Below, piece by piece: positions 9,543-29,849 of a stretch of DNA of 32,000 nt (position 1 is its first letter; each line of letters opens with the position of its first letter). Source of the DNA: Planctomycetales bacterium. Its GTDB lineage: Bacteria > 4484-113 > JAFGCY01. The notes below the pieces were generated by a model. That model was not told where the DNA came from and made no database searches. It saw only the letters and a list, made by a program, of their open reading frames with translations. The stretch is from the NCBI GenBank assembly GCA_022646745.1, contig CP060262.1:2340001-2372000 (forward strand), given 5' to 3'. The position numbers and the translations under genes were made by a program.

Positions 9543-10985
<1,443 letters not shown>

Positions 10986-11117
10986 GTGACTATTTTAAGG
11001 CAGAGTCTGGACTGCAATTCAAGGCTTAAACCCACTGCAAACCTGTACAGCAGTCCACAAACGTGTTGGTGCCGCAGTTATATCCCTCGCAGCATACATG
11101 CTTGCAGAGGAGTCAAC

Positions 11118-11882
11118 ATGACCAGATTCATTGCTGTTTTCATTCTTTCAATAATGATTACCGCCTTCGCTTCCCTGAGTGCCATCGCTTCCGGACCGTC
11201 CAGCCCCGAAGAGGCCATCGTTGCCCTGAAGGATGGCAACGAGCGCTTCGTTGACGGACGCAGTGCACATCCGAACCTCGACCTGTCCCGCATCCGCGAC
11301 ACCAGCGAGAACGGGCAGCACCCCTTTGCCACCATCATCGGCTGCTCCGACAGCCGCGTACCGCTCGAGCTGGCGCTCGACCAGGGCATCGGCGACCTGT
11401 TCATCATCCGCGTGGCCGGCAATGTCTGCAGCACGGATGAGATCGGCAGCATCGAGTACGGCGTGGACCACCTCGGCACCCCGCTGATGGTCGTGATGGG
11501 CCATACCCATTGCGGTGCCTGCACCGCAGTCGCCCAGGGCGCGGAAGTACACGGCAGCATCCCGGCACTGGTGGCCCCGATCGGCGACGCAGTCAAGGCC
11601 GTCAAGTCCACCAACCACGAGCTTGAAGGTGACGAGCTTGTGGCGGCCGTTGTCGAGGAGAACGTCTGGCAGTCCATTGAGGACCTGCTGATGAAGAGCC
11701 CCGACACCCTCAAGCATGTCAACAGCGGCACCACCAAGGTGATCGGCGCGATCTATGACATTGAGACCGGCGAAGTGCGCTGGCTCGGCGAGCACCCGAA
11801 ACAGGCAACCATCATCGCGGCTGCCGGCGGTGGCAATGGACACATTGCCAGCGTGGATGGCCACGGCGACGGACACCGTTAA
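11118..11882 (+). CDS. Beta-class carbonic anhydrase with an N-terminal signal peptide (copy 1 of 3)
   Basis: The ATG at 11118 is preceded by GAGGAG (11107-11112); the longer ORF from 10932 is rejected. The hydrophobic leader is MTRFIAVFILSIMITAFASLSAIA-SG. Beta-CA zinc and catalytic motifs GCSDSRVP and GHTHCGAC are present. The C-terminal tail is His/Gly-rich (GNGHIASVDGHGDGHR). Confidence 0.92.
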   Translation: MTRFIAVFILSIMITAFASLSAIASGPSSPEEAIVALKDGNERFVDGRSAHPNLDLSRIRDTSENGQHPFATIIGCSDSRVPLELALDQGIGDLFIIRVAGNVCSTDEIGSIEYGVDHLGTPLMVVMGHTHCGACTAVAQGAEVHGSIPALVAPIGDAVKAVKSTNHELEGDELVAAVVEENVWQSIEDLLMKSPDTLKHVNSGTTKVIGAIYDIETGEVRWLGEHPKQATIIAAAGGGNGHIASVDGHGDGHR

Positions 11883-11898
11883 CCTGCTAAGCAACCGG

Positions 11899-11933
11899 CG
11901 GCCGGCCATGGAGGGCCGGCCGTTTGCTTTTCT
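11899..11933 (+). terminator. Intrinsic terminator after beta-CA copy 1
   Basis: A 9-bp GC stem, CGGCCGGCC (11899-11907) pairing with GGCCGGCCG (11914-11922), closes a 6-nt loop. It is followed by TTTGCTTTTCT (11923-11933). Confidence 0.7.
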
Positions 11934-12003
11934 GGGGAGGCTTGTTGACTATTGCAGTCCTGCCGGATAATGTTGCTTCCCAATCGCACCTGCAGGAAAG
12001 AAA

Positions 12004-12750
12004 ATGAAGTCCAACTTCCTCCTCATCATCGTCATGCTTTGCAGCTGCCTGGCCTCAGCGGCCGTCGCTGCAGACCTGCCCAGCCCGCAGGAAGCACTGG
12101 CCAGCCTGGTTGATGGCAATGCCCGCTTCGTGGCCGGCGAAAGTGCGCACCCGCACCTGACAATAGATCGGGTGCTGGAGACCGGTAAGGATGGCCAGCG
12201 TCCCTTTGCGACTATCATCGGCTGTTCCGACAGCCGTGTACCGATCGAGCTGGTGATGGACCAGGGGCTGGGTGACCTGTTCATCATCCGTGTGGCCGGC
12301 AATGTCTGCAGCACGGACGAGATCGGCAGCATAGAGTACGGCGTTGACCACCTCAATACCCCGCTGATGGTGGTGCTGGGGCATACGCACTGCGGTGCCT
12401 GCACGGCGGTGGCCACGCATGCGGAGGTGCATGGCAGCATCCCTGCGCTGGTGGCCCCGATTGGCACCGCAGTGGCGGAAGTGCTGGACGCCCAGCCTGG
12501 CCTTGAAGGTGATGCACTAGTGGAGGCTGTGGTCGAGGAGAACGTCTGGCAGTCCGTCGAGAGCCTTCTGAAGCGCAGCCCTGATACGCTCAGGCATATT
12601 GAGGAAGGTAGCCTGATGGTGGTCGGCGCGGTCTACGATATCGAGACGGGCGTGGTTGAATGGCTTGGCGAGCACCCGCAGCAGTCTGAGATCCTGATGG
12701 CGATGGCAGACGGCAGCACACTCGCTGAGACGGCTACTTCTCGCGACTGA
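12004..12750 (+). CDS. Beta-class carbonic anhydrase with an N-terminal signal peptide (copy 2 of 3)
   Basis: AGGAAAG precedes the ATG. The leader is MKSNFLLIIVMLCSCLASAAVA-AD. It has the same GCSDSRVP and GHTHCGAC motifs. The segment 12274-12354 matches 11394-11474 at 77 of 81 nt. Confidence 0.92.
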   Translation: MKSNFLLIIVMLCSCLASAAVAADLPSPQEALASLVDGNARFVAGESAHPHLTIDRVLETGKDGQRPFATIIGCSDSRVPIELVMDQGLGDLFIIRVAGNVCSTDEIGSIEYGVDHLNTPLMVVLGHTHCGACTAVATHAEVHGSIPALVAPIGTAVAEVLDAQPGLEGDALVEAVVEENVWQSVESLLKRSPDTLRHIEEGSLMVVGAVYDIETGVVEWLGEHPQQSEILMAMADGSTLAETATSRD

Positions 12751-12798
12751 TCCGAACACAAGCTACGTTGGTTCCGGCCTTGGACAGTCTGCAATGGT

Positions 12799-12829
12799 CT
12801 GACCACTGACGACTGACCACTGACTACTG
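12799..12829. repeat. Short tandem repeat, a 14-nt unit present about 2.2 times
   Basis: CTGACCACTGACGA (12799-12812), then CTGACCACTGACTA (12813-12826), then CTG. It lies in the spacer between beta-CA copies 2 and 3. Confidence 0.6.
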
Positions 12830-12846
12830 TTCTATACTCTTCACCG

Positions 12847-13551
12847 ATGTTTCCCTCAGCATTCTCCTCATCCATCCACTTCGCCCCGGACGGCTGGGCC
12901 GGCACGGCTTCTGATCGTCCTTCGCCCACGGAGGCCCTGCGCCTGATGCAGGAGGGCAACCGCCGCTTCCTGGCCGGTCAGAGCGAGCTGGCGGAGCATG
13001 ACCTGGCGCATATCCTTGAGCACAGCCGCAAGGGCCAGCAGCCACTGGCCACGGTGCTTGGCTGCTCCGACAGCCGGGTGCCGCTGGAGCTGGTGCTCGA
13101 CCAGCACATCGGCGACCTGTTCGTGATCCGTGTCGCCGGCAACGTGGTGCGCACCGCCACGCTTGGCACTATCGAGTACGGTGTGGATGCACTCAAGACT
13201 CCGCTATTGGTCGTGATGGGCCATACGCATTGCGGCGCCTGCACGGCGGTTGCCAACGGTGACGAGTTGGGAGGCCATATCCCGCAGTTGGTGGCCCCGA
13301 TCGGCGATGCGCTGGCCGCGGTCAGGCAGCGGTACTCCAGCCTGGAGGGCGAGGCCCTGCTCAACGCCGTGATAGAGGAGAACGTCTGGCAGAGCATCGA
13401 GGACATGCTGCGTCACAGCTCAGTTGTGCGTGGCCTTGTACGGAATGGCTCGCTCAAGGTGAAGGGCGCGGTTTACGACATCGAAAGCGGAGCGGTCAAA
13501 TGGCTCGGCCCGCATCCGCGCCAGAATGTGATCATCGCGGAACTGGGCTAG
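12847..13551 (+). CDS. Beta-class carbonic anhydrase without a recognisable signal peptide (copy 3 of 3)
   Basis: 234 aa carrying GCSDSRVP and GHTHCGAC. The N-terminus MFPSAFSSSIHFAPDGWAGTASDRPSP lacks a hydrophobic core. This is the only in-frame ATG upstream of the conserved ALRLMQEGNRRF helix. No Shine-Dalgarno sequence is visible. Confidence 0.88.
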   Translation: MFPSAFSSSIHFAPDGWAGTASDRPSPTEALRLMQEGNRRFLAGQSELAEHDLAHILEHSRKGQQPLATVLGCSDSRVPLELVLDQHIGDLFVIRVAGNVVRTATLGTIEYGVDALKTPLLVVMGHTHCGACTAVANGDELGGHIPQLVAPIGDALAAVRQRYSSLEGEALLNAVIEENVWQSIEDMLRHSSVVRGLVRNGSLKVKGAVYDIESGAVKWLGPHPRQNVIIAELG

Positions 13552-13658
13552 GGCAGGCCGGACAAGAGTCAGGCCATCTGGGAACTGACAGCAGGTTTAG
13601 GGCCAGCCCGGCCTACACCTCAGTTTGCCGCAGGAACACAAGGCCTGTACCATGCTCC

Positions 13659-15485
13659 TTATTCCCTCAGCCACTCCAGTACATTGCAGAGCATGTCGCA
13701 GCGCAGGGTCGGCTCCCCCGTGTTGTCAGGATCCTGCAGGATCTCGACCTCCGTCCAGGCATAGCCGATCACCCAGCAGCGCGCCGTGCCGCTGGAGCTC
13801 AGGTCGCAGAATGGCGGATAACCGTTGAATCTGCAGGGTGCGGTGGTGCAGCCCCAGCTCACGAGTGCGCTGACATGCCCAGGATCCTCAGGGTAGGGTG
13901 AGAAGAACAGGCCGGGCTGGAATCCAGGTGCCGCACACATCCCGCCTAGGCCCTCACGTGGCATGATGCTGGAATTCCAGGCCCGTGTGCTGAACTGCGC
14001 ATCTGCGGGAACGCGGATCGCCCATGGTACGCGCCCGCCCGCACCGGCGTAACGCTCACCGTCATCACGGCCCATGCCGTCGTCAAACTCCGGGTCGGTC
14101 TGGAATGAGCCGACGAGGCTGACGGTCGACACGGGCAGGCTGATCCCGGTTGCCAGCAAGGGGTCGGGCCAATAGGGCAGGCCGACGGCGTCGGTGAACT
14201 CCAGATCGTTGCCAGGCAGCACCTGCGTTACGGGCTCGAAGCCCAGTTCCTGCCAGCTCAGGCCCTTGCTGACCCCCATGTTCTGGCTCATCACGAGCAT
14301 GTTCATCCCGCTTTCCAGCAGGGCCATCACGTCGGTCTGCTCAGCATACCCCCAGCTGTTGTAAGCGAGGCTGCGGTTCGGTCCGCCGCGCCCCCCGCAG
14401 TACCAGACCACGCTGTCGTAGCCACCCTCCAGCAGGGTGCTGCTCAGGCCCGGTTCATAGAGGAACCAGTCAAAGTCTGCACCGATGCGCTGCAGGTCGA
14501 ATCTCACAGCGATGTAGCCGATGTAATCGCTGGCATCGCCATTGTTGACGAGCGCCAGCCGGCCTCCGGAATAGACGGGGCGTGGCAGATCAGGAAACAG
14601 GTCCCCGAAGTAGATCATGTGAAAGCTTTCGAGATCCTTTGAATAGCAGAAGCTGTTGATATCCCAGGAGATTTCGCCGAGCACCCCATTCACCGAGTCG
14701 TAGGACTGGACTCTGTAGTCATACCAGCCCGGCAGTTCCGGCTCATCGCGGAATTCGAAGCGCAGCGGCTCAGCCCCACCGCCGCTGCCCTCGCTGAGCA
14801 GCATGCTGTGCTGCGCGGAATCCGCCCCCGGCAGGAAATCCGGCAGGAAGGTCTTGTCCTGCGGTCCCTGGCGGAAGACGCGGTAGCCATCGAGCCTGTC
14901 ACCGAAGTTGGCGGCGATCGGCGTGAGGTCCGCCAGGTTGAGAAGGCCGTTGCCATCTCCGTCAATCTGGGCCAGCCTGCGGTTGAGCGCCGGATCAGCC
15001 ACACTGTCATCCGGGACCGTGGCGTGGCCCTCGCGTGTGGAGATCCGTGTGTATTGCACGGTGGAATTGAAGTACTGTCCGAGCGGCGTGATGTCGGCGA
15101 TGTCTACGACGCCGTTGAGATCGTAATCCCCGGGGTGCCGGAAGGACCAGCTCAGATTGATTCCCTGCGGTGGTGCTCCTCCCTCGCCGTCGGGATCGTC
15201 AAGTTCCGCGAGTACGTCATACACTCCGCTGCCGGAGTACAGTGAGTAGTCTGCGGCACTCGTGGCCTCCCGCTCCTGCAGGCGCGCAAGCTCCAGCAGC
15301 AGTGCCATTTCCAGTTCCGGGTAATCCGTGACGAATCGCCGCTTCTCTGCGGGGCGGACGGCGTGAGTTTGCCCGGATGACGAGGAGCAGGCGCCGGCAG
15401 TGGACAGCAGTAGCAGAGCCATGATCAGCATGAGTCCAGTACCAGTCGTAACATATCTGTTGGCTTGCTGATGGGATCGTTTCAT
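13659..15485 (-). CDS. Lipoprotein, family B paralog 1: dockerin-like double Ca-loop module plus a shared C-terminal domain
   Basis: The ORF is open to 15572. The ATG at 15485 gives MKRSHQQANRYVTTGTGLMLIMALLLLSTAGA-C, a lipobox; an alternative ATG lies at 15506. Two EF-hand-like loops are present, GDYDLNGVVDIADITPLGQYF and DGDGNGLLNLADLTPIAANFG, followed by LDGYRVFR. The C-terminal domain shares VVWYCGGRGGP, MNMLVMSQN, SWGCTTAP and CWVIGYAWTEVEI with 17977-19845. Confidence 0.8.
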   Translation of the reverse strand: MKRSHQQANRYVTTGTGLMLIMALLLLSTAGACSSSSGQTHAVRPAEKRRFVTDYPELEMALLLELARLQEREATSAADYSLYSGSGVYDVLAELDDPDGEGGAPPQGINLSWSFRHPGDYDLNGVVDIADITPLGQYFNSTVQYTRISTREGHATVPDDSVADPALNRRLAQIDGDGNGLLNLADLTPIAANFGDRLDGYRVFRQGPQDKTFLPDFLPGADSAQHSMLLSEGSGGGAEPLRFEFRDEPELPGWYDYRVQSYDSVNGVLGEISWDINSFCYSKDLESFHMIYFGDLFPDLPRPVYSGGRLALVNNGDASDYIGYIAVRFDLQRIGADFDWFLYEPGLSSTLLEGGYDSVVWYCGGRGGPNRSLAYNSWGYAEQTDVMALLESGMNMLVMSQNMGVSKGLSWQELGFEPVTQVLPGNDLEFTDAVGLPYWPDPLLATGISLPVSTVSLVGSFQTDPEFDDGMGRDDGERYAGAGGRVPWAIRVPADAQFSTRAWNSSIMPREGLGGMCAAPGFQPGLFFSPYPEDPGHVSALVSWGCTTAPCRFNGYPPFCDLSSSGTARCWVIGYAWTEVEILQDPDNTGEPTLRCDMLCNVLEWLRE

Positions 15486-15607
15486 CTGTTCAGTGATCTG
15501 CCGCATCAAGCAGATCATATCCGGAGTTTCGCCTGGGCAGACTGCACAATCGGCCTTCGATTCTGACTGCACACATCAATTGATCTAATTCACGATGTTG
15601 CTTGATA

Positions 15608-15635
15608 TTGCAATGTCAGTCCCCTCCGGTAGAAT
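15608..15635 (+). promoter_or_regulatory. Putative sigma70-like promoter for the cytochrome c peroxidase gene
   Basis: TTGCAA (15608-13), a 16-nt spacer, then TAGAAT (15630-35), about 49 nt upstream of the ATG at 15684. Confidence 0.35.
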
Positions 15636-15683
15636 CTGCAGAGGCTGCTGTTCCAGAAGACGGTGGCCTGTGAAGGGGTTTCC

Positions 15684-17036
15684 ATGAAACTGAAAGGGCT
15701 GATCACGACAACTGCAGTGCTTGCAGCGCTGGCTTCCTCCTGTGGTGGAGGGGGCTCGGCACCACAGCAGGACCTGGACAATGAACTGCGTCAGGCGCTA
15801 AGCACCTACGGTGTCAGTGAGCTTGCAACGCTTCCAATGCATTCCGCCGAGAAGGTGGCCCTGGGCCGTGCACTGTTCTTCGACAAGCTGCTCAGTGGCA
15901 ACCGGGACATGTCCTGTGCCACCTGCCATGACCCCCGTGAAGCGGGCGGTGACGGACTCTCCCTGTCCGTCGGTGTCGGCGGCAGCGGGATCGGGCATGC
16001 GCGCACGCTTGGCGACGGGAAGGAATTCATCCCGCGCAATGCCCCGGAGATCTTCGAGCGCGGTGGTCCCGAGTTCACCAGCATGTTCTGGGACAGCCGG
16101 GTACATGAGGACGAGCAGGGCTTCCTGCACACCCCGGCGATGGGCATGCTGCCGCAGGGCCTGGACAGCGTACTGGCGGCACAGGCGATGTTCCCGGTCA
16201 CCTCACGCGCAGAGATGCGCGGCTTCGTCGGTGACAATGATGTGCTGGGCGACCCCAATGAACTTGCGCCCCTGGCTGACAACGACTTCCCCGGCATGTG
16301 GAGCAGCCTGATGGACCGTGTGATGGCTGTGGAGGAGTACCGCCACATGTTCGCCGCTGCCTATCCCGCTGTTGACGAGGCGGAATTCGGCTTCCAGCAC
16401 GCGGCGAATGCGATCGCCGCCTTCGAGGGTACCGGCTTCAGCTTCCGTGACACCCCGTTTGACAACTACCTCTCCGGTGACGACTCGGCGATGACCGACA
16501 CGCAGAAGGAGGGTGCGCTGCTGTTCTACGGTGCCGCAGGCTGCGCTCGCTGCCATACCGGCTCAGCGTTGACCGACCTGCAGCACTACAACTTCATGGT
16601 GCCGGCGCTCGGTCCCGGCAAGCAGGATGGCATCGACCCCGGCTTCGCCCTGACCAGCCACAATGATGCCGACCGCTTCTCCTTCCGCACCCCGCCGCTG
16701 CGCAATGTCGAGCTGACCGGTCCATGGATGCATGACGGCTCGTTCACTGACCTGCGCAGTGCGGTGAAGCATATGCTGGACTGCCAGGACAGTGTGCACA
16801 ACTACGACCCGCTGACACTCAAGTCTGATGTGCGCGAGACCCTCAACATGGACCAGGCGCTGATGGACGAGATGCTGGCAACGATCAGCCCGGCTGCCGC
16901 CGAGCGCCGCGAACTGACGGAGGCACAGATTGACCAGCTGATGGCATTCCTGCATGCCCTGACTGACCCGTCAGCGGCAACTGAGATGCCGGCCCTGCTG
17001 CCTGCCAGCGTACCGAGCGGCCTGCCGGTGGATTAG
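15684..17036 (+). CDS. Di-haem cytochrome c peroxidase / MauG-family protein, lipoprotein-type signal
   Basis: The ATG at 15684 follows GAAGGGG; the GTG at 15663 is rejected. The leader is MKLKGLITTTAVLAALASS-C. There are two CxxCH haem motifs (CATCH and CARCH), and the family block FRTPPLRNVELTGPWMHDGSF is present. Confidence 0.92.
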   Translation: MKLKGLITTTAVLAALASSCGGGGSAPQQDLDNELRQALSTYGVSELATLPMHSAEKVALGRALFFDKLLSGNRDMSCATCHDPREAGGDGLSLSVGVGGSGIGHARTLGDGKEFIPRNAPEIFERGGPEFTSMFWDSRVHEDEQGFLHTPAMGMLPQGLDSVLAAQAMFPVTSRAEMRGFVGDNDVLGDPNELAPLADNDFPGMWSSLMDRVMAVEEYRHMFAAAYPAVDEAEFGFQHAANAIAAFEGTGFSFRDTPFDNYLSGDDSAMTDTQKEGALLFYGAAGCARCHTGSALTDLQHYNFMVPALGPGKQDGIDPGFALTSHNDADRFSFRTPPLRNVELTGPWMHDGSFTDLRSAVKHMLDCQDSVHNYDPLTLKSDVRETLNMDQALMDEMLATISPAAAERRELTEAQIDQLMAFLHALTDPSAATEMPALLPASVPSGLPVD

Positions 17037-17140
17037 GAGGTCAGCTGTCAAGCTGACAACGGAGGTGTGGCGCAAGTCGCACAATCTGAGCAAACCGGAG
17101 CTGACAACCAACCTCAGGCACGAACCTCGACGGGAAGTTT

Positions 17141-17845
17141 CTACAGCTTCGCCAGCTCATCGCGCAGCAGCCTGATGTTCAGCAGGCGCTGGCCGACGTC
17201 ATAGCTGCCAAGGATACCCAGCACGGCGAATGCCATCACATATGGCGTGAGCTGGGCCCAGGCGGTCAGCACGCTGGCATTGCCTCCGAACAGTCCGGTC
17301 TGGTACAGCACGAAGCCCAGCATTGCCAGCATCATCGCGAAGCTTGCCATGCTGGCCAGCCAGCGCATGCGCAGCAGGTGCCGTGGTTCCGCCAGGTACC
17401 AGTCCAGCTCTGAAGCGTACAGCCGCACCCAGTCCTTCAGTGACACTGGTGCTGGCCCGAGGAACAGGATCCAGGGCCAGGCAACGTACCGCCTGATGTC
17501 TGGCAGCTGCCCGTGGCCGATGGCAACCCTGTGGATGAAGTCGCTTTGATCCATGCGCTGCTGGATGCGCTCGCGATATGTCCGGCTGCGCCATTCCATG
17601 CACGCGAGCAAGGCGATACACAGTACCGTCCAGCCGATGAACTGCAGCGGGGGGAACTGCATTGCATTGCCCCCGGAGGCTGCGAAGTTGCCAGTGACGA
17701 TCATCACCAACCCGATCATGTACATCATCCCGCTGATCATGCGCGGGCTGTAGCCGGAACGCTGCTCCAGCATCCGGTTGAGTTCTGCCAGCAGCTGCTC
17801 ACTGTATCCGCCTCCCGAAAGTCCGGCATCCGCCTGACCGGCCAT
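17141..17845 (-). CDS. Polytopic membrane protein, family C paralog A
   Basis: The ORF is open to a GTG at 17917, but that codon directly abuts a terminator U-tract. The ATG at 17845 has GGAGGTG 4 nt upstream and gives 234 aa. It is paralogous to 20190-20900 (YRERIQQRM against YREKLRDKV; SELDWYLAEPRHLLRMRWL against SHLDWYLGKPDRVIRIEWL). Confidence 0.65.
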   Translation of the reverse strand: MAGQADAGLSGGGYSEQLLAELNRMLEQRSGYSPRMISGMMYMIGLVMIVTGNFAASGGNAMQFPPLQFIGWTVLCIALLACMEWRSRTYRERIQQRMDQSDFIHRVAIGHGQLPDIRRYVAWPWILFLGPAPVSLKDWVRLYASELDWYLAEPRHLLRMRWLASMASFAMMLAMLGFVLYQTGLFGGNASVLTAWAQLTPYVMAFAVLGILGSYDVGQRLLNIRLLRDELAKL

Positions 17846-17922
17846 GCTGCACCTCCATGCACAACTGTTGTACATCCTGCAGGCCTTGGCGGTTTCGTCG
17901 GCAAGGGTGGACTGCACAAATG

Positions 17923-17952
17923 AAAAAGGCAGGCCCGCCTGGGGCCTGCCTT
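17923..17952 (-). terminator. Intrinsic terminator after dockerin-like lipoprotein 17977-19845
   Basis: A perfect 11-bp stem, AAGGCAGGCCC (17926-17936) pairing with GGGCCTGCCTT (17942-17952), closes a 5-nt loop. On the minus strand it is followed by TTTTTCATTT. Confidence 0.7.
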
Positions 17953-17976
17953 CAATTGGGTCAGTCTGTTGTCCGC

Positions 17977-19845
17977 CTACTGCATCAACCAGGCCATCGT
18001 GTTGAGCAGCAGCTCGGCACGGACCATGCCTGAGGGGCTGCCGGACGGGTCGTCCTTGATCTCGACGTCATTCCAGGCATAGCCGATCACCCAGAACCGG
18101 GCACTGCCGAAGTCGTCAAGGTTGTATGACGGGAAGAAACCCATGTTGAAATATGGAGCAGTTGTGCATCCCCAGCTGGTGAAAGCCGATGCAATTCCCT
18201 CGGTCAGCGGCGGATCAAGTGTATCCAGCGGGAAGAAGCCCAGGCCTGTGCGGAAGCCGGCGCCGGCGGCGCTGCCACCGAAGAACCCGTCGAAGTAGCC
18301 GATGGACATGAACTGCGTATCATCCGGCAGGCTGATCTGCCAGGCAGCCTGCCCCGAACTGTCAGTGCCGGTGAAGAACTCACCATCGCCACTTCCGGTG
18401 CCGTTCGAATCCATCGAAACTCTGTTGGAATCAATCCTGCCAACCACGCTGAATGGCGCTGTCGGGAAGTAGCCGACACTGCCACCGAAGCCTACGCCGT
18501 CATCCTCGGCCAGGCCGCTCATCCAGACGAACCAGCGGTCAGCAAGTGTGAGCGTATTTGCGCCGACTACGCTGTAATCGGGGTGGTAATCCCAGGAGTT
18601 GATGAAGAAGCAGTCGCCCATCTGGTGGTTCTGGCTCAGCAGCAGCAGGTCGCCGTCCCCTGTCAGGATATCGCGGATGTTTTCCATTTCCGCTTCAGCC
18701 CAGACGCTCTCCTGCAGGTCAGTCTCGCTGCCGCCGGGGCCGCCGCGGTACCAGATCGCCAGGTCGTAGTCGCCGGTGAGGAAGTAGTCGTCAACGCCGT
18801 CGTAATAGTCAACTTCCTCGTAGTCCGTGCTCAGGTCGTCAAGGTCGGAGACGATCGCATCGTAGTTGGCATTGAAGCTGTCACCGTCGTCGCGCACCAG
18901 CAGCACCTTGCCACCGAAGTCCGGCAGCGGGTTGGGATTCGGGTCCGGGTCGGGGTCTGGATCGGGGTCCGGATCCGGGTTCGGGTCGGGATCAGGATCC
19001 GGAGCCGGCGGCGGGGCGAATTCCAGCGCCGGGTCATCGCCGGGGCCACAGCCCGGGCCGTCGCCGCCATGTGCATGGCTGCTGCTGCCTTCACTGCCGC
19101 TGCCAAAGCCGGCGAGGAAATAATCGTAGCCACCATCCACACTGACCGGGTCGTCAAACTGGAAGTGCACCACGCTGCTTCCGCCGCCCAGCGCCTCGCC
19201 GCGGCCGATCGTGTATGGCAGCCCGCCGTCCTGCGGGTTGGCAAGCATGCTGAATGAATCCTCGCCCGGAGCCTTGCGGTAGATGCGGTAGCCCTCCAGC
19301 TTCTCGCCGAAATGCTGGGCGATCACGGACACATCCGCCAGGTTGATCTCACCGTTGCCATCGCCGTCCACGCGGGCCAGCCTGTGGTTCTCGCTGTCGC
19401 TGTCCCCTGACGGGATGTCGGCTATGCCATCGTTGTCAGCCGCCGGAAGGTAGTCCACGCTCTTCAGGTAGTTCTGCCCGAGTGCGGTCAGGTCACTGAC
19501 CGCCACCTCGCCGTTCTGGTCGAAGTCACCGGCCAACCGCTCAGTCCAGCTGAGCCGGATATAGCTCTGCGCACCTTCCGGATCCATCTGCTCCACCCGC
19601 AGGTCGTTCACGGAGTTGCGCTCGCCAGTCGGTGCACTGGCTGCCACCTTGTCCGGGTCGATCCCCAGCCTGGCGAACTCAGCATCAAGTGCTGCGGCCA
19701 GTTGTTCACTGTCCGGCACGGACAATTCATTATTGCCAGTGCCAATTGCGGAGATATCCTGTTGAGTTCCGCTGCCAGCGCAGCCAAACAGGAAAAGTGC
19801 GCCAAACCCGATCAGTGCAATTCGGGTGTACTTCCCATGTCCCAT
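17977..19845 (-). CDS. Lipoprotein, family B paralog 2: dockerin-like module, (Pro-Asp/Asn)12 linker, shared C-terminal domain
   Basis: The ATG at 19845 is preceded by AGGAGGA; the ORF extension to 19998 is rejected. The leader is MGHGKYTRIALIGFGALFLFG-C. The Ca-loops are GDFDQNGEVAVSDLTALGQNY and DGDGNGEINLADVSVIAQHFG, followed by LEGYRIYR. The C-terminal domain (KVLLVRDDGDS, AIWYRGGPGGS, DLLLLSQNH, SWGCTTAP, FWVIGYAWNDVEI) is paralogous to 13659-15485. Confidence 0.85.
   Translation of the reverse strand: MGHGKYTRIALIGFGALFLFGCAGSGTQQDISAIGTGNNELSVPDSEQLAAALDAEFARLGIDPDKVAASAPTGERNSVNDLRVEQMDPEGAQSYIRLSWTERLAGDFDQNGEVAVSDLTALGQNYLKSVDYLPAADNDGIADIPSGDSDSENHRLARVDGDGNGEINLADVSVIAQHFGEKLEGYRIYRKAPGEDSFSMLANPQDGGLPYTIGRGEALGGGSSVVHFQFDDPVSVDGGYDYFLAGFGSGSEGSSSHAHGGDGPGCGPGDDPALEFAPPPAPDPDPDPNPDPDPDPDPDPDPNPNPLPDFGGKVLLVRDDGDSFNANYDAIVSDLDDLSTDYEEVDYYDGVDDYFLTGDYDLAIWYRGGPGGSETDLQESVWAEAEMENIRDILTGDGDLLLLSQNHQMGDCFFINSWDYHPDYSVVGANTLTLADRWFVWMSGLAEDDGVGFGGSVGYFPTAPFSVVGRIDSNRVSMDSNGTGSGDGEFFTGTDSSGQAAWQISLPDDTQFMSIGYFDGFFGGSAAGAGFRTGLGFFPLDTLDPPLTEGIASAFTSWGCTTAPYFNMGFFPSYNLDDFGSARFWVIGYAWNDVEIKDDPSGSPSGMVRAELLLNTMAWLMQ
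18931..19002 (-). repeat. Hexanucleotide repeat encoding 12 Pro-Asp/Pro-Asn dipeptides, a linker
   Basis: The plus strand reads GTTGGG ATTCGG GTCCGG GTCGGG GTCTGG ATCGGG GTCCGG ATCCGG GTTCGG GTCGGG ATCAGG ATCCGG. The translation is PDPDPDPNPDPDPDPDPDPDPNPN, inside CDS 17977-19845. Confidence 0.9.
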
Positions 19846-20109
19846 AAGTATCCTCCTGTGCCGGGGATGAGCCCCGGCCAGTTCGCAGCCGGTAGAACTG
19901 CTCCCCAGAATGTAACAGGATTCAGGATTCTCCAAAAGGCACAATCCTGCCGAAATCAGGGGAAACAGTCGTGCTGAGGATACACCTGCGACGAGCATTG
20001 TGTAGTTTTTCCGAAATCCCAGGAAATCACTTCACAAAGTGTTACCTGCACAAGTCAGCGGAAAGCTGTCCATGTACAACTGGACTCAACGCAGCTAACA
20101 GCATGGTGC

Positions 20110-20180
20110 TCAGTCCAGTTCGTCTTCGCCAGCCCTTGGCCGGTATGCCTTTCCTTCGAGGTCGGCCCGGGCAAAGCGGC
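20110..20180 (-). pseudogene. Orphan, diverged copy of the last ~23 codons plus stop of the gamma-CA-like gene
   Basis: 20110-20178 aligns codon for codon with 21048-21116, matching at 52 of 69 nt by hand count. The translation is ...RFARADLEGKAYRPRAGEDELD*, against ...RIARAYMEGKTYRPGVNEDELD* in the intact gene. No upstream coding continuation exists, because the stop of 20190-20900 lies about 10 nt away. Confidence 0.6.
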
Positions 20181-20189
20181 AGGGCCAAA

Positions 20190-20900
20190 CTAGTTGTCCT
20201 GAATCACAGACAACAGTTCGTTGAGGTTCACTTCATTACGGCAGCGGACCAGTTGTTCGCCTGAAAAGGCAAGCGTAAAGAAAGTGATTACAAGCAGATA
20301 ATAATGTTTAAAAATCCAACTCTGTTGAATCACTTCATTGCCAAACTGGTGTCGAACAACTGTGATAACCAGAGCAACCAACCCCAACTCCAGCATTGCC
20401 AGGATACACAGCAGCCACTCAATGCGAATAACCCTGTCAGGCTTGCCAAGATACCAATCCAGATGTGACACAACATATCGGAGCCATTGGTCTTCGTTCT
20501 TTGGTCGGAATCCGAGTATGAAGCGCATTGGCAGTGGGACGTAGTCGTGGACCATGGGTAAGGAATTGGGCCAGGCAAGAAGTTCCAGAGCGGTTTCTTT
20601 GTTGAGGACTTTGTCCCGAAGCTTTTCGCGATAAGCTGGCGTGAAATAGACAGACATGAAACCCATCGCCAGGCAGCAAGCCAGCCAACAGACTATGGGA
20701 ATATAAGGTAAGAGTCCTGGTTGGGGCTTGGGCGACCGTAAGCTTTCAGACGTATAGAAAATGAAGAAATATCCTGTGCCTCCCATGGCGTTCCATGCCA
20801 GAAAGCCAGAAGGATTTGCAAAGTACCTGTATCCCTTGGTGCGGAGATCATTAAGCTTGCCGGATAGCGCTACATTCCTGAATACTTGGATTCCTTCCAT
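20190..20900 (-). CDS. Polytopic membrane protein, family C paralog B, in a lower-GC segment
   Basis: The ATG at 20900 gives 236 aa, colinear with paralog A (234 aa). The ORF-track start at 20948 is a TTG. The sequence is visibly more AT-rich than its neighbours (for example AAAGTGATTACAAGCAGATAATAATGTTTAAAAATCC). Confidence 0.6.
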   Translation of the reverse strand: MEGIQVFRNVALSGKLNDLRTKGYRYFANPSGFLAWNAMGGTGYFFIFYTSESLRSPKPQPGLLPYIPIVCWLACCLAMGFMSVYFTPAYREKLRDKVLNKETALELLAWPNSLPMVHDYVPLPMRFILGFRPKNEDQWLRYVVSHLDWYLGKPDRVIRIEWLLCILAMLELGLVALVITVVRHQFGNEVIQQSWIFKHYYLLVITFFTLAFSGEQLVRCRNEVNLNELLSVIQDN

Positions 20901-21047
20901 CAAATGTCGCCTTGATTGCGTTGAATTGTAACTGCACTGCAATAACAATGACTATCGCAATCATTACTTTACATCAGGCTAACTGAGCCGATTCCACGCT
21001 GGCACGGATGTTGCCATACCTTCTATAGCACGGCTCAATTCGGAATG

Positions 21048-21674
21048 TCAGTCCAGCTCGTCCTCATTTACGCCAGGCCGGTAGGTCTTGCCTTCCATGT
21101 AGGCCCGGGCAATGCGCCGGTACTTGCGCGCAAAGGGCGTACCTGCCAGTCCGCGCAGCTCCTCCGGGATGTCAGCGGCATTTGCAATCGCCTCGCGTGC
21201 CCCGATCTTGACCAGTGTGCGCTCCGTCACTTCGCCCTTGACCTGTGCCGGGATGCCGACCGCCACGCTAAGCGGCGGAATCACCGCCCCCTCGCCGACC
21301 ACCGCGCCGGCCGCGATGATGCTGCCGCGCCCGATGTGTGCGCCGTTGAGCACCCTGGCACCCATCCCGATCAGGCAGCCGTCCTCCACCGTGCAGCCGT
21401 GCAGGATCGCGCTGTGCCCAACGGTCACGTAGCGGCCGATGATGCAGGGGTGCACATCCGCCACATGCAGCATCACGAGGTCCTGGATATTGCTGCCGAA
21501 GCCGATCTCCACGTGGTTCACGTCTCCGCGGATCACGCTGTTGAACAGCACGGTGCAGTTCTGCGCAATGGAAACGTCACCTGTCACCACCGCACCGGGG
21601 GCGAGCCATGCACTCTCGTGGATCTGCGGGCTGTACTTGCCATAGGGGAGGACTGTTGCTGAATTCACGGCCAT
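21048..21674 (-). CDS. Gamma-carbonic-anhydrase-like / left-handed beta-helix (hexapeptide repeat) protein, YrdA/PaaY-type
   Basis: 208 aa. PQIHESAWLAPGAVVTGDVSIAQNCTVLFNSVIRGDVNHVEIG... and ...GHSAILHGCTVEDGCLIGMGARVLNGAHIGRGSIIAAGAVV are the typical gamma-CA-family hexapeptide turns with conserved His residues. There is a C-terminal extension of about 45 aa. Confidence 0.9.
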   Translation of the reverse strand: MAVNSATVLPYGKYSPQIHESAWLAPGAVVTGDVSIAQNCTVLFNSVIRGDVNHVEIGFGSNIQDLVMLHVADVHPCIIGRYVTVGHSAILHGCTVEDGCLIGMGARVLNGAHIGRGSIIAAGAVVGEGAVIPPLSVAVGIPAQVKGEVTERTLVKIGAREAIANAADIPEELRGLAGTPFARKYRRIARAYMEGKTYRPGVNEDELD

Positions 21675-22720: not shown

Positions 22721-24376
22721 ATGCCCGCAAGATTGACTGCTGCATTGCTATTGACCATGCTGGCCTTGCTGGCTTCCTGCTCATCCTCAGGCTCACCGGC
22801 CCCACCTGCGCCCAAGCCTGAGTTTCCGACCCAGGACCTTCTGCCGCAGGTGAATGAACTGGATTCCCTGCATTCCACATCCAGCCTGAACCGCACGGTG
22901 ATCCTCGGCAAGGACACCTACGTACGCTCCAGCGGCTGCACCGAGCAGCCAGGCGGTGAACTGCTGATGGAGTCCGCGGCGGGCTCGGTCTGCTGGGCGA
23001 TCTGGCAGCTGCCGGACGAGCCGGAATTCCTTGACTCGGTGTTCTTCGACATCATTGACGCGCTGGGCGAGGGCGGCTACCTCGGCGTTGCCAACTTCAG
23101 CGAGGGGCGCTGGGACTTCAGCGGTCCCTATACTGACCAGACCACGCTTGAGTTTGCACCGGACTGGCAGGCATCACCGGGCGGCTTCCACTACTTCGCG
23201 GCCCTCGTGCATGACGGGGCTGCCATCGAGATGGCGCAGCTGCTGTGCTATTTCAACGATGGCTGGCAGGTGGTGGTTGTCTCGGCGATGCATGAGGCGG
23301 GTGTCAACTCTTCAATTGCCAACATCGACGGGCATCCCGCGATCGCCTACCGCCGCAATGAGGACGAGGCCCTGCGCTATGCATGGAGCTCAACGGAGAC
23401 GGGTGCGGAAGGTGATGACTGGACGGACATTTCCATTCCGGCCCTGTTTACGGCGGGGCTGTACTGCAGCCTGGCGGATGTCAACGGGCGCCCGGCGATC
23501 AGCTTCCGCGGCGAGACGGACAACTTTGGGTACGAACTGCACTACGCGATCAGCAACAACTCCAGCGGCAGTGCCTCCGGCAACTGGAATGTAATCGTGC
23601 TTGATCCGACGGAGGATGTCGGCTACCACACCAGCCTCGCCATGATCAATGGCCGCCCGGCAATTGCGTACAGCACACAGGCCGGGCAGGATCTGTTCTA
23701 CATGCGCAGTGCAAGCCTGTACGGCGATGCGCTGGAGGACTGGTCAGTGCCCGTGGAGGTGGACCATGATGGTGCCGGTGATCTCGGCGCTGACTGCAGC
23801 CTGGCGGAGGTGGATGGCCGTCCCGCCGTCAGCTACTTCGCCAATGGCACGCTGCGCTACAGCTGGAGCAGCACGGCATCAGGAGAGTCGGGTGCCGACT
23901 GGAACATCCGCGTGATTGACAACGAATCCGCCAGCAATGTCGGCTTCTACTCCAGCCTGGCGGTGATCAACGGCAAGCCCGCGATCAGCTACTACGACCA
24001 GCTGCATGCCGACCTCAAGTTCGCCTGGAGCAGCACCGCCGGAGGGCAGATTGCCGCTGACTGGAACACTATGGAAATCAGCGGCCCGCCGATCGCCGGC
24101 CAGTACAGCAACCTGGTGGAACTGGACGGGCAGCCGGCGGTCTGCTATTACACCGTTGGAGTGCTCAGGGACCTGTTGTTCGACCAGGCGGTCCCGGCGG
24201 CAATCCCTGAGGAATGGTCCTGGGGGCCCTACGTGACCGTGGATGGCAATGATGGCCTGATGCCGGCTGATGTCGGACGCAACTGCAGCATGGCGGTTGT
24301 CAACGGCCGGCCCGTGATCTCATACTATGACGCGACCAGTGAGAGCCTGAAGTACGCAGTGCGCGTGCTGCCCTAG
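22721..24376 (+). CDS. Lipoprotein, family A paralog 3: shared N-terminal module plus a very regular 7-bladed propeller
   Basis: AGGAG lies 7 nt before the ATG, and the leader carries the lipobox LLAS-C. The module motif is YLGVANFSEGRWDF. Seven clear repeats follow: IANIDGHPAIAYRR..LRYAWSS; LADVNGRPAISFRG..LHYAISN; LAMINGRPAIAYST..LFYMRSA; LAEVDGRPAVSYFA..LRYSWSS; LAVINGKPAISYYD..LKFAWSS; LVELDGQPAVCYYT; MAVVNGRPVISYYD..LKYAVRV. Confidence 0.87.
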   Translation: MPARLTAALLLTMLALLASCSSSGSPAPPAPKPEFPTQDLLPQVNELDSLHSTSSLNRTVILGKDTYVRSSGCTEQPGGELLMESAAGSVCWAIWQLPDEPEFLDSVFFDIIDALGEGGYLGVANFSEGRWDFSGPYTDQTTLEFAPDWQASPGGFHYFAALVHDGAAIEMAQLLCYFNDGWQVVVVSAMHEAGVNSSIANIDGHPAIAYRRNEDEALRYAWSSTETGAEGDDWTDISIPALFTAGLYCSLADVNGRPAISFRGETDNFGYELHYAISNNSSGSASGNWNVIVLDPTEDVGYHTSLAMINGRPAIAYSTQAGQDLFYMRSASLYGDALEDWSVPVEVDHDGAGDLGADCSLAEVDGRPAVSYFANGTLRYSWSSTASGESGADWNIRVIDNESASNVGFYSSLAVINGKPAISYYDQLHADLKFAWSSTAGGQIAADWNTMEISGPPIAGQYSNLVELDGQPAVCYYTVGVLRDLLFDQAVPAAIPEEWSWGPYVTVDGNDGLMPADVGRNCSMAVVNGRPVISYYDATSESLKYAVRVLP

Positions 24377-26792: not shown

Positions 26793-29700
26793 ATGTTGAA
26801 GCACTTTCTTCCTGCTGAACGCCTTGGCAGAATCAGCACTGTCCTGCTGCTGACCGGCTTGCTGTCCGGATGCGGCCCCCAGGGAAGCGCGGATAGCCCT
26901 GCCAGCCTGCCGGAAGTGACGGCTCCTGCTGCAGGTCTAAAGCCTGCCGCAACCGGCCGGTCCGTCAAGCTGGTATCTCTTCCCCCGCGGATCACACCCG
27001 CAGCCGACCTTGCTGCACTGCGGGCCGAGGCCGAGGCCCTGCCTGTACCTGCCGGGGTTGACCCCCAGCTGTTCGGCGAGTTGCGCGAGGCAATGCTGGC
27101 TGCCGTTGGGCAGGACGCCGCCCGCAGCGTTTCAAAGCTGCCGAGCGGGGAGGGCAACCTCGTCAGCGACCTGCACCTCGAGGAGCAGGGCAGTAGAGGC
27201 ACCCTCGGCTGGACATATGTGAACATCGGGGACTACGACCTCAATGGCGAGGTCGGCATCTCGGACATCACGCCGATCGGCATCCACTTCAACAAGTCTG
27301 AGGCCTCCAGCGACTGGGACAGCGCGCGAGTGGCGGACGGCGATGGCAACGGCCTCGTCAGCATCTCCGACATCACTCCGCTCGGCGTGCACTTCGGTGC
27401 CTCCGTGCAGGGCTACAACATCTACGGCCGGCTGTCCGGCGGCAGTGGCTACAGCCTGCTTGGCAGCGTGCCCGTGGCCAGTGGCAGCGGCACACCGAAG
27501 CAACTGCAGTTCCCGCTGGCGAGCATTGACTACGACATCTACATGGTTGCGCCCTACGATTCCTTCGGTGAGGACATGCCGCAGCAGGAACTGCTGAACC
27601 CGATGGCGCTGCCGCTGGACCCGGCCGTCGTGCAGGTCGACTCATTCGACGATGACGGTGTGCTGCTTTCCGGCGATGTTGGCAACATCGAGGTCGGCAG
27701 CGTGATCGTCAGCACGGAGGGCCGTGGCCTGCTGCGCCGAGTGGAGGGCATCACACCAGTCGCCGGCGGGGCACAGCTGGCAACCAGCCAGGCAACGCTT
27801 GAGGACCTGTTCGACTATGTCAGCTTCGGCGACCAGCTGCAGTTCAGCTTCGATGACGTTGAATCATTCGAGCCCGAGATCGAGGGACTGACTTTCGAGG
27901 AGGACGACTCCGGCGCCGGGACATCCTCCGCCCGCTCCGGCAGCGCCAGCACAGGGATCATCAAGCTGTCGGTGTCCTACAAGCCGCATGACAACCTGCT
28001 GCTCAATGGCACGATCAGCATGGATGCCGGTGCGGACCTTGCCGTCGACATCGGCACGGGCTGGTCCGACTTCGGCCAGCTCAATACCTTCGAGTTCAAT
28101 GCATGGGCCGACGGCAAGATATCCGGCACGGTCAAGGCCCTGCGGGAATTCAAGCTGGCGGAGGGCAAGCTGAAGCTCGGCACCCTGCATCTGGCACCGG
28201 TCTGGATGCCTGCCGGACCGATCCCGGTCGTTGTCACTCCCGAGATCCAGGTCTGGCTGAAGTTCACCGGCAAGGGCGACGTGGCGATCCAGGCCACCAC
28301 CTCCGGCACCGCCCATGTCAGTGTGGCAACGAAGTATGACCGTTTGCGCAGCTGGTCAGCGGACTTTGACAGCGACCTGCAGTGGGGCGAATCACCGGCG
28401 CCGGTGCTATCCGGCACGATCACGGGTGAATTCAGCATCTTCGGCCCGGAGATGGACCTGTTCATCTACGGTGTGATCGGGCCATACCTGCACCTCGAGC
28501 TGCCCTATGCCAGCGTGTCAGCAAGCATCAATGACAAGTTCATCCCGCCGGACAGCTTCGACTACAGCCTGACCATCGGCGCCAGCTTCGGCGCACGCGG
28601 TTCAGTCGGGGTTGAAGTCGCAGCGCTCAGCGGCACGATTGCCCGCTTCGACACCGGAAACATCCTCAACGTCAGCAAGCCGCTCTACAGTGCGACCTAT
28701 CCCCTGAGCGGTGCAAGTGTAAGTGGCAAGGTGCTCAGCGCTGTCCCGTACCTCACGGATGGCAACCAGGACCTCGGTGAGGACGAATACATCCTGCTGG
28801 ACTGGGTACCCGAGGCGCTCGTGGAATTCATGCAGGGCGGCAAGGTCGTTGCCAGCTGCCTGCACCAGAACAACAGTCCCAGCCTCAGGTACAGCTCCTA
28901 TTCACGCTTCCTCGCCCCCGGCACTTACCAGATAAGGGCCACGGCGGAGGGCTACTTGGAGGGCAAGGGCGAAGTCATAGTCACGGACAAGGTAGCGGCT
29001 TACAGCCAGAACATCTATGTCTATCCGCATGCGGATTCCGAATCCGTTGACATTTCCATCAGCAGCCCGGCCGCTGGACAGGTGATCCATGAACCGATGC
29101 TGGTGCTGGAAGGCGTGGCCACAGCTGGTGAGAAGCCCTTCGACGGACTGCTGCTGGACTTCCTGCCCGATAAAGCGGGAGGACTCTACGATGGTACGGG
29201 CAACTTCGGAGTTGGTGCGATCGAGCCGAATCCAGATGGCTCATTTGCGATTCCTGTGAAGCTGGATTCAGACGTGCAAAGCCTGCTGGTCGTGCCTTAC
29301 TACGAATTCTTTTTCGGACCGGGTGACTCACAGTCCCTGCTGGTTCCATTAAAGACCAACCTGCCGGACGGTTTCCCGCTTGATTGCGATTTTGAACCTG
29401 CTGCAATGCTGGGTGTACTTTCATGGAAACTCGACGCCGTCTACTCAGATGGCACGCAGGAGCCTGACATCCCGGGCGTGCCCAATGAGGATTTCCGCCT
29501 TGTGGTTATCGAGCCCGGGCATGCGCTAGTGGCTGGCCAGGAACAGGACGGACTGGGCTATATCAGGCAGGTTCCGGGGAGCTGGCACTGGTATTACTAC
29601 CTGCCGCAGTCAGCAGCCCAGAGTGGGGACATCATTTATCCCAAGGTGCACCTGCTTAGCTCTACACACGATGGAGGCCCGTTCAGTTACTCGGCGTATT

Positions 29701-29849
29701 TTCAGGTAAGTTTCTATTCTGAGGTATACACCTCATTGGATCATTACTTTGCAAGTGGCTCGCTCAAGAATGCTCAAGGGATAACGCCGATAGACCCATT
29801 TGGTACCGGATTCGACTGGTTATCGACACTGGGGCTGACTATCCCCTGA
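26793..29849 (+). CDS. Large (1018 aa) lipoprotein with the family B dockerin-like module, otherwise uncharacterised
   Basis: GGAAGGTG precedes the ATG, and the leader carries the lipobox LLSG-C. The Ca-loops are GDYDLNGEVGISDITPIGIHF and DGDGNGLVSISDITPLGVHFG, followed by VQGYNIYGR as in family B. A carboxypeptidase-regulatory-like stretch (ASVSGKVL...GTYQIRATAEGYLEGKGEVIV) is present. The remaining ~600 aa are beta-rich with no motif I recognise. Confidence 0.85.
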   Translation: MLKHFLPAERLGRISTVLLLTGLLSGCGPQGSADSPASLPEVTAPAAGLKPAATGRSVKLVSLPPRITPAADLAALRAEAEALPVPAGVDPQLFGELREAMLAAVGQDAARSVSKLPSGEGNLVSDLHLEEQGSRGTLGWTYVNIGDYDLNGEVGISDITPIGIHFNKSEASSDWDSARVADGDGNGLVSISDITPLGVHFGASVQGYNIYGRLSGGSGYSLLGSVPVASGSGTPKQLQFPLASIDYDIYMVAPYDSFGEDMPQQELLNPMALPLDPAVVQVDSFDDDGVLLSGDVGNIEVGSVIVSTEGRGLLRRVEGITPVAGGAQLATSQATLEDLFDYVSFGDQLQFSFDDVESFEPEIEGLTFEEDDSGAGTSSARSGSASTGIIKLSVSYKPHDNLLLNGTISMDAGADLAVDIGTGWSDFGQLNTFEFNAWADGKISGTVKALREFKLAEGKLKLGTLHLAPVWMPAGPIPVVVTPEIQVWLKFTGKGDVAIQATTSGTAHVSVATKYDRLRSWSADFDSDLQWGESPAPVLSGTITGEFSIFGPEMDLFIYGVIGPYLHLELPYASVSASINDKFIPPDSFDYSLTIGASFGARGSVGVEVAALSGTIARFDTGNILNVSKPLYSATYPLSGASVSGKVLSAVPYLTDGNQDLGEDEYILLDWVPEALVEFMQGGKVVASCLHQNNSPSLRYSSYSRFLAPGTYQIRATAEGYLEGKGEVIVTDKVAAYSQNIYVYPHADSESVDISISSPAAGQVIHEPMLVLEGVATAGEKPFDGLLLDFLPDKAGGLYDGTGNFGVGAIEPNPDGSFAIPVKLDSDVQSLLVVPYYEFFFGPGDSQSLLVPLKTNLPDGFPLDCDFEPAAMLGVLSWKLDAVYSDGTQEPDIPGVPNEDFRLVVIEPGHALVAGQEQDGLGYIRQVPGSWHWYYYLPQSAAQSGDIIYPKVHLLSSTHDGGPFSYSAYFQVSFYSEVYTSLDHYFASGSLKNAQGITPIDPFGTGFDWLSTLGLTIP

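Follow-up and report, generated by a model that had tools for sequence, protein, structure and literature searches.

A predicted fibronectin type III-nested dockerin and an undescribed C-terminal domain in paralogous lipoproteins of an uncultured activated-sludge bacterium

Introduction

A 32,000-nucleotide stretch of contig CP060262.1 (positions 2,340,001 to 2,372,000; hereafter the window) carries three open reading frames (ORFs), designated p1, p2 and p3, for which lipoproteins with an atypical split dockerin-like module had been predicted. What is this module, and what would it do together with the C-terminal domain shared by p1 and p2? The G+C content of the window is approximately 61%. 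All three ORFs were present where they had been predicted. p1 (13659..15485, minus strand) encodes 608 amino acids (aa), with a possible start as far upstream as 15572. p2 (17977..19845, minus strand) encodes 622 aa, and its longest ORF reaches 19998. p3 (26793..29849, plus strand) encodes a lipoprotein of 1018 aa that shares the N-terminal module of p1 and p2 and differs from them in its C-terminal part. Both p1 and p2 are lipoproteins, paralogous to each other, from an activated-sludge bacterium that has not been cultured. The new points reported here are the predicted nesting of the putative dockerin in a fibronectin type III (fn3) domain and the undescribed family of the C-terminal domain; the remaining parts are known.

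Results

Two dockerin-related loops in each ORF

Exactly two loops of the EF-hand/dockerin type were found in each ORF, in agreement with the original prediction: DYDLNGVVDIAD and DGDGNGLLNLAD in p1 (residues 120-131 and 175-186), DFDQNGEVAVSD and DGDGNGEINLAD in p2 (residues 107-118 and 160-171), and DYDLNGEVGISD and DGDGNGLVSISD in p3. All six are 12 residues long and match D-x-[DN]-x-[DN]-G-x-[VILA]-x-x-x-D, a pattern that covers the coordinating residues at positions 1, 3, 5 and 12. A six-frame regular-expression scan of the 32 kb detected these six loops and none besides. In 200 codon-block shuffles of the window, the mean was 0.03 loops and the maximum was 1, and the loop pattern is therefore not due to chance. 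The dockerin-like pair was located at 14889..15131 (minus strand) in p1, with a long inter-repeat segment, from the loop scan and the module profile, and at 19294..19530 (minus strand) in p2 from the loops, the module profile and a sub-threshold Pfam Dockerin_1 match.

The dockerin relationship that had been proposed for these loops was borne out by profile searches. A profile built from 21 modules matched the dockerin-containing PDB chains 4fl4_A (E 3.7e-5), 2y3n_B (9.8e-5) and CelD 1clc_A (2.2e-3), and the dockerin alignments covered both repeats at native spacing. When the modules were scanned singly against Pfam, Dockerin_1 was matched by 12 of the 21 and EF-hand_1 by 3, and Dockerin_1 was the only recurrent family. 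The long-linker relative P0122 scored 23.7 bits against Dockerin_1, above the Pfam gathering score of 22.9, and a precomputed PF00404 match exists for about 12 of 96 relatives. An origin from thrombospondin type 3 or FG-GAP-associated repeats was rejected, because no such profile turned up.

The modules share with type I dockerins (PF00404; C. thermocellum GH9, 4fl4_A; B. cellulosolvens Cel48, 2y3n_B) two duplicated loop-and-helix segments, with the common 12-residue loop pattern D-x-[DN]-x-[DN]-G-x-[VI]-x-x-x-D followed by a helix. Both repeats keep the helix pattern D-[IL]-T-P-[IL]-[GA]-x-x-F; the conserved Thr-Pro in these helices is a difference from type I dockerins, as are the scores of p1 and p2 below the Pfam gathering threshold and the lack of a known cohesin partner. 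Loop 1 directly follows a beta strand, the predicted B strand of an fn3 domain (see below), without an entering helix. An F-hand without an entering helix is the arrangement of dockerins, and the position of loop 1 thus corresponds to the dockerin F-hand. Taken as a whole, the profile evidence supports a probable dockerin relationship of the loops, with p1 and p2 themselves remaining below the Pfam threshold.

Generic calmodulin-type EF-hands for Ca2+ sensing, with no specific relation to dockerins, would be another source of such loops, and calmodulin chains do occur among the weak matches. However, there is no helix before loop 1, the Pfam counts given above favor Dockerin_1, and the dockerin alignments span both repeats. 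We consider the calmodulin-type reading very unlikely.

Spacing of the two loops

The loops are 55 aa (p1), 53 aa (p2) and 35 aa (p3) apart from start to start. Separations of 25-35 residues, against roughly 10 in classical dockerins, had been proposed. Counted between the two patterns used in that prediction, the gap was 38 residues in p1, 36 in p2 and 18 in p3, and an alignment-based count made likewise for a classical C. thermocellum dockerin gave 19. Neither of the proposed figures held. Since the gap of p3 is close to the classical one, the extension is confined to p1 and p2; the "split" attributed to all three is real for these two, but p3 has classical spacing, and the extension lies within known dockerin variation. 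Consistently with the spacing of p3, most relatives have the same spacing as type I dockerins, approximately 35 aa from start to start.

Two spacing classes were found among the collected proteins, 78 with 30-40 aa and 21 with 45-70 aa. The dockerins of p1 and p2 form a subtype in which the inter-repeat segment is longer by approximately 20 residues. The Dockerin_1 match of p2 aligned 74 aa to profile positions 1-55, indicating an insertion of approximately 19 aa. In most members, the extension has a motif of its own, V.Y ... G[FI]..WP.G ... NWR.AR.DGN. Group 1 dockerins of R. flavefaciens have an inter-repeat segment (segment d) of 37-45 aa (PMC2930009), and the long spacing of p1 and p2 is thus not unprecedented in itself. 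These dockerins resemble p1 and p2 in the long inter-repeat region, which in p1 and p2 extends for approximately 33 aa after the first helix. In contrast, the insert sequences are unrelated, and that of p1 and p2 bears a motif and is coupled to one C-terminal domain.

A dockerin predicted to be nested in an fn3 domain

A GY..YR ... YDY segment had been predicted to follow the loops. It is present in all three proteins (GYRVFR, GYRIYR and GYNIYG, followed by WYDYRV, GYDYFL and DYDIYM in p1, p2 and p3, respectively); however, it is not a separate appendix and corresponds to strands C to G of a predicted fn3 domain. Conserved flanks were recognized on both sides of the loops, ..V.DL......L.W.YR before them and GY.VYR ... 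F.F ... YY.V.P.D after them. To analyze the flanks, the dockerin was deleted from 38 sequences, the flanks were joined, and the resulting profile (A5), in which p2 is the first row, was searched against PDB. A5 matched fibronectin FN3 at E 2.8e-6 and FN3con (4u3h_A) at E 1.4e-3, the latter over the whole length (profile 7-101 against residues 15-97). Further matches were the fn3 domains of PTPRF, gp130, titin and chitinase A1 (ChiA1). The alignments cross the excision junction unbroken ("sDlrle...vrLsWtyrntesvdGYrVyr" against "TNLHLE..."), placing the dockerin in the fn3 B-C loop.

These results indicate that the segments flanking the loops in p1, p2 and p3 form one predicted fn3 domain, with a complete two-repeat dockerin in its B-C loop. 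In p1, strands A-B (GVYDVLAEL ... INLSWSFR) are at 15132..15230 and strands C-G (GYRVFR ... LRFEFRD ... WYDYRVQSYD) at 14661..14888; in p2, strands A-B (NSVNDLRVE ... IRLSWTER) are at 19531..19617 and strands C-G (GYRIYR ... VHFQFDD ... GYDYFLAGF) at 19090..19293, all on the minus strand and all assigned from A5. The fn3 domain of p3, located from the loops and the excised profile, spans 27156..27578 (plus strand) and contains its dockerin with classical spacing at approximately 27228-27410.

Without the dockerin, the flanks match fn3 (PF00041) from strand A to strand G, including the B-strand Trp, the GY.[VI]Y of strand C and the Y.Y.V of strand F; unlike fn3, the p1-p3 module has a 60-80-aa domain inserted into the B-C loop. 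Pfam fn3 itself was reached by only 2 of the 38 excised sequences, with a best E of 1.1e-4. The module also differs from type I dockerins in position, being nested in fn3 near a lipoprotein N-terminus instead of being appended to the C-terminus of an enzyme. The termini of a dockerin contact each other (PMC3821032), and insertion into a loop is therefore feasible. A non-exhaustive literature search found no description of an fn3-nested dockerin.

Lipoprotein signals and domain order

We read the signal peptides by eye from the sequence, using a signal peptide ending in [LVI][ASTVI][GAS]C as the lipobox criterion. p1 ends its signal peptide with A-G-A-C33, which is less canonical (15387..15485, minus strand), p2 with L-F-G-C22 (19780..19845, minus strand) and p3 with the lipobox-like L-S-G-C27. 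All three ORFs thus have a hydrophobic signal and a lipobox-like Cys, and the pattern makes p1, p2 and p3 probable lipoproteins, in agreement with their earlier designation as lipoproteins.

In p2, a low-complexity linker of Gly/Ser followed by PDPDPNPDPD (PDPDPNPDPDPD; 18928..19089, minus strand) precedes the C-terminal domain. Pfam and NCBIfam searches with p1, p2 and p3 yielded only sub-threshold Dockerin_1 and low-complexity artefacts. The matches of p2 to PARP, SslE, YfaL and ClfB models belong to these artefacts, since the PD-rich linker is of low complexity. The order of parts in p1 and p2 is a lipobox signal peptide, a short helical spacer, one predicted fn3 domain, a flexible linker, and an alpha/beta domain of 305-316 aa.

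Distribution of the N-terminal module

The profile search detected 96 further proteins at E < 1e-5, all from metagenomic sources or unclassified metagenome-assembled genomes (MAGs), with several proteins per MAG. Many are lipoproteins of approximately 280 aa with the module alone, and one has two modules. In other proteins, the module is fused to PQQ-like propellers, PKD domains, or arrays of Ig or fn3 domains. The fn3::dockerin module is thus a lineage-wide lipoprotein N-terminus. P0002 is a full-length homologue of p1 with 45% identity, and P0010 and P0015 are homologues of p3.

A second set of lipoproteins in the window, at 2264-3910, 4344-6008 and 22721-24376 (plus strand) and also at 7287-9368, has no Pfam match and shares a beta-rich N-terminal region, followed by about seven propeller-like '..NG[RK]PAI.Y...L.Y.W' repeats. 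In P0008, P0016 and P0017, which come from other metagenomes, the same NG[RK]PAI.Y repeats are joined to an fn3::dockerin module.

A C-terminal domain of an undescribed family

The C-terminal domain lies at 13662..14579 in p1, with the degenerate motifs NNGD, WYCGGRGG and SQNMG (from homology to p2 and the family alignment), and at 17980..18927 in p2 (316 aa), both on the minus strand. The two copies are 33-34% identical. A shared domain of about 330 aa had been predicted; the domain is real and the quoted motifs are present, but its length is 305-316 aa. One of these motifs, SWGCTTAP, occurs in p1 and p2, but its Cys is not conserved, most members having S[YW]GNxxAPDxNIG.

When 1.84 billion cluster representatives were searched exhaustively with HMMER, 50 clusters were retrieved, 42 with E values below 1e-10; a profile search for proteins with the 32-sequence alignment of the domain found only two. 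Three architectures occur: the p1/p2 type with 0-7 inserted PKD domains, an fn3-TIG-PKD type, and proteins of 1300-2100 aa with the domain at approximately residues 600-900. NCBI names these proteins only "PKD domain-containing" or "hypothetical". No match was obtained in Pfam or NCBIfam, or among PDB sequences with single sequences or the 32-sequence profile. At E <= 10, the 32 members showed no recurrent Pfam family, and neither PF06283 (ThuA) nor another member of the GATase1 clan was matched, apart from a match of one of the 32 to DUF4350 at E 0.035. The domain is thus a real domain of a rare, undescribed and unannotated family, and it could not be mapped to a known enzyme family, in line with its description as uncharacterised in the original prediction.

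AlphaFold2 with the 32-sequence alignment gave a confident model of the p2 domain (predicted local distance difference test (pLDDT) 91, predicted TM-score (pTM) 0.92), compared with a pLDDT of 36 with a 3-sequence alignment. The combination of AlphaFold and Foldseek proposed earlier for this domain retrieved no closely similar structure. Class I glutamine amidotransferases (GATases) alone were matched by Foldseek over the whole domain, with a target TM-score (TMt) of 0.56-0.58 on chains of approximately 185 aa and E values of 4e-3 to 2e-2. Partial matches over the first 100 residues were to flavodoxin, CheY and DHH folds, and a Foldseek search of BFVD added nothing. The GATase1/ThuA-like character once suspected is therefore seen as a weak likeness of fold, but has no profile support, and ThuA never matched. 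The class I GATase fold (GMP synthetase 7d97_B, PabA 8rp2_BBB) and the modelled p2 domain have in common the core b1-a1-b2-a2-b3-a3-b4 and the C-terminal helix; unlike the GATases, the p2 domain has approximately 120 extra, mostly beta, residues, lacks a Cys-His-Glu triad, and has no detectable sequence or profile similarity to class I GATase or ThuA.

The strongest motifs, IRNDG, WYRGGPG and SQxHG, were placed at the C-terminal ends of beta1, beta3 and beta4 by DSSP of the model and the alignment. In flavodoxin-like and GATase1-like folds, ligands usually bind in a crevice at these strand ends. If the domain were an active hydrolase descended from a GATase1- or peptidase-like fold, Ser98-Gln99, which follow beta4 and are nearly invariant, would be part of its active site, and these proteins would be surface-anchored enzymes and not binders. 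The conserved polar motifs at the strand ends, the purifying selection on the domain (see below) and the identity of the whole-domain Foldseek matches (7d97_B, 8rp2_BBB, 7yc6 and 3fij_C, together with ADC synthase and viral FGARAT homologues) are in line with this reading. However, the 32 family sequences contain no invariant Cys or His, so that the GATase1 Cys-His-Glu triad with its Cys nucleophile elbow after beta4 was not found in the family. The AlphaFold2 model has no helix after beta4, hence no canonical nucleophile elbow. A comparison of the family with an approximate E. coli PabA sequence by hhalign detected no relationship, and no Pfam clan member was matched. An active hydrolase is therefore doubtful. 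We read the domain as a putative functional binding or catalytic domain without amidotransferase chemistry.

At L007 1105-20367, at least three tandem genes without a Pfam match (2126, 2124 and 1287 aa) carry one domain of this type each. In P0128 (875 aa), the domain is divided and the order of its two pieces is reversed: profile positions 90-308 come first, at residues 557-784, and the beta1-beta3 part follows at residues 785-875. Either the contig end truncates a tandem pair here, or the domain is circularly permuted.

Coupling of the parts and selection on p2

The long-linker dockerin was present in all 15-16 proteins that have both the N-terminal module and the C-terminal domain, and none of the 78 short-linker modules was accompanied by this domain. 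This strict coupling to one dockerin subtype suggests that the two parts work together.

For comparison we used JAGRNR010000003.1 (locus L001) of MAG HKST-UBA01, with 94-98% DNA identity to the window, and the sister MAG HKST-UBA03, with approximately 80-89%. HKST-UBA01 was assembled from saline activated sludge (PMC8495973). The label UBP7 given to it by its depositors is at odds with how that phylum is now described (0.83-1.39 Mb, 36-53% GC; PMC11382960). The p2 ortholog of HKST-UBA01 begins with MGHGKY, identical to the start of p2. Between these orthologs, the synonymous divergence (dS) and the ratio of nonsynonymous to synonymous divergence (dN/dS) were 0.135 and 0.013 for the N-terminal half and 0.46 and 0.10 for the C-terminal domain. 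The dN/dS values indicate that both parts are under purifying selection. Synonymous divergence is higher in the C-terminal domain, the head of p2, which suggests that the head has had a history of its own, probably through recombination.

HKST-UBA01 lacks p1 and has approximately 70 bp in place of the window interval 13565-15567. In HKST-UBA03, p1 occupies the syntenic site with only 48% identity.

Search for a cohesin-like partner

Cohesin-like segments below threshold were seen in P0005, P0008, P0018 and P0019, on the same polypeptide as fn3::dockerin. A crude 5-sequence profile of these segments ranked the NagJ cohesin of C. perfringens first, at E ~0.05. Such segments beside a dockerin could allow chaining of the proteins. 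Noncellulosomal pairs such as C. perfringens NagH/NagJ (2ozn) and the X-module-dockerin dyads are comparable, in that a dockerin is used outside cellulose degradation and is packed against an Ig- or fn3-like module. They differ in that the organisms are Firmicutes and the modules stand in tandem, not nested as here.

The pair of loops may instead be a structural Ca2+ clamp that stiffens or stabilizes the extracellular fn3 stalk of the lipoproteins, with no cohesin-type partner and no docking system. No cohesin passed the Pfam threshold anywhere in the examined material, many relatives consist of the module alone, and partnerless noncellulosomal dockerin-like modules are reportedly widespread (Peer et al. 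2009, as cited in PMC3821032). However, the same helix pattern is kept in both repeats, an internal symmetry typical of partner-binding dockerins, and the cohesin-like segments of P0005, P0008 and P0019 speak for a partner. We regard the clamp as possible, at well below an even chance.

As components of a clostridial-type cellulosome, p1-p3 would have only the dockerin similarity in their favor. The window contains no glycoside hydrolase, carbohydrate-binding module or scaffoldin; the proteins are predicted to be lipid-anchored, with an N-terminal dockerin nested in another domain; and the organism belongs to an uncultured non-Firmicute MAG lineage. A cellulosome role was rejected as extremely improbable, as the original prediction had also held.

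Genes around p1 and p2

p2 is flanked by two paralogous genes for multi-pass membrane proteins of approximately 255 aa (17141-17917 and 20190-20948, minus strand), which have no Pfam match and share the motif DWYL..P......W. The former has the same orientation as p2 and follows it at a distance of 60 bp, an arrangement kept in HKST-UBA01. The latter, a stretch of lower GC, is missing in HKST-UBA01 (window interval 19989-21048) and present in HKST-UBA03. A di-haem cytochrome c peroxidase (CCP_MauG; 15663-17036, plus strand) lies between p1 and p2, divergent from p1, with no evident functional link. Upstream of p1 and adjoining gatB are three tandem beta-carbonic anhydrase paralogues (10932-13551, plus strand; Pro_CA, each E ~1e-40) with 69-77% DNA identity to one another.

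Discussion

We propose, at a probability of roughly 60%, that p1 and p2 are lipid-anchored surface proteins in which an fn3-nested, Ca2+-dependent docking stalk carries a ligand-binding or catalytic head. The lipid anchor would hold the proteins on the membrane surface. The two loops would bind Ca2+ and thereby fold the dockerin, through which, on its fn3 stalk, the protein may dock to a partner, cohesin-like or of another kind. The working head would be the C-terminal domain, binding or hydrolyzing an extracellular ligand without the Cys-His-Glu chemistry of GATases.

Several results weigh against this proposal. As for the dockerin, Pfam Dockerin_1 gave no match on p1 and p3, p1 had no Pfam match at all, and the score of p2 (17.4 bits) is below the gathering threshold of 22.9. 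Calmodulin matched the module profile at E 1.7e-4, almost equal to the dockerins, and the fn3 nesting is a prediction from profile matches. As for docking, Pfam and a crude profile detected no cohesin-like domain in the window or the fetched loci. P0005 (L003 8001-9632) scored 22.9 against Pfam Cohesin, below the threshold of 24.1, and its C-terminal segment alone retrieved no cohesin from PDB. As for the head, the C-terminal domain has no profile link to any family, its GATase fold match is weak (query TM-score (TMq) 0.36-0.37), and several conserved residues of the motifs are replaced in p1 (R61 to C, H101 to M). The neighborhoods of three members of the C-terminal-domain family had no conserved context, and thus give no pointer to a substrate.

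A wider reading, which we regard as speculative and rather unlikely, is that the lineage runs a non-cellulosomal cohesin-dockerin system of surface display. The fn3-nested dockerin would then serve dozens of lipoproteins as a common N-terminal plug, some of these proteins could chain via cohesin-like domains of their own, and the long-linker subtype would specifically bring to the cell surface a hitherto undescribed enzyme or binding domain, a GATase1-like head with a new active site.

If the nested fn3::dockerin does dock, dockerin-based assembly would be a general device for lipoprotein display in a new structural format, far outside the cellulolytic Firmicutes. It would also offer a handle on how an uncultured wastewater lineage organizes its cell surface. 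With its confidently predicted fold and the lack of annotation in all the libraries that were searched, the C-terminal domain is well suited to structure-function studies.

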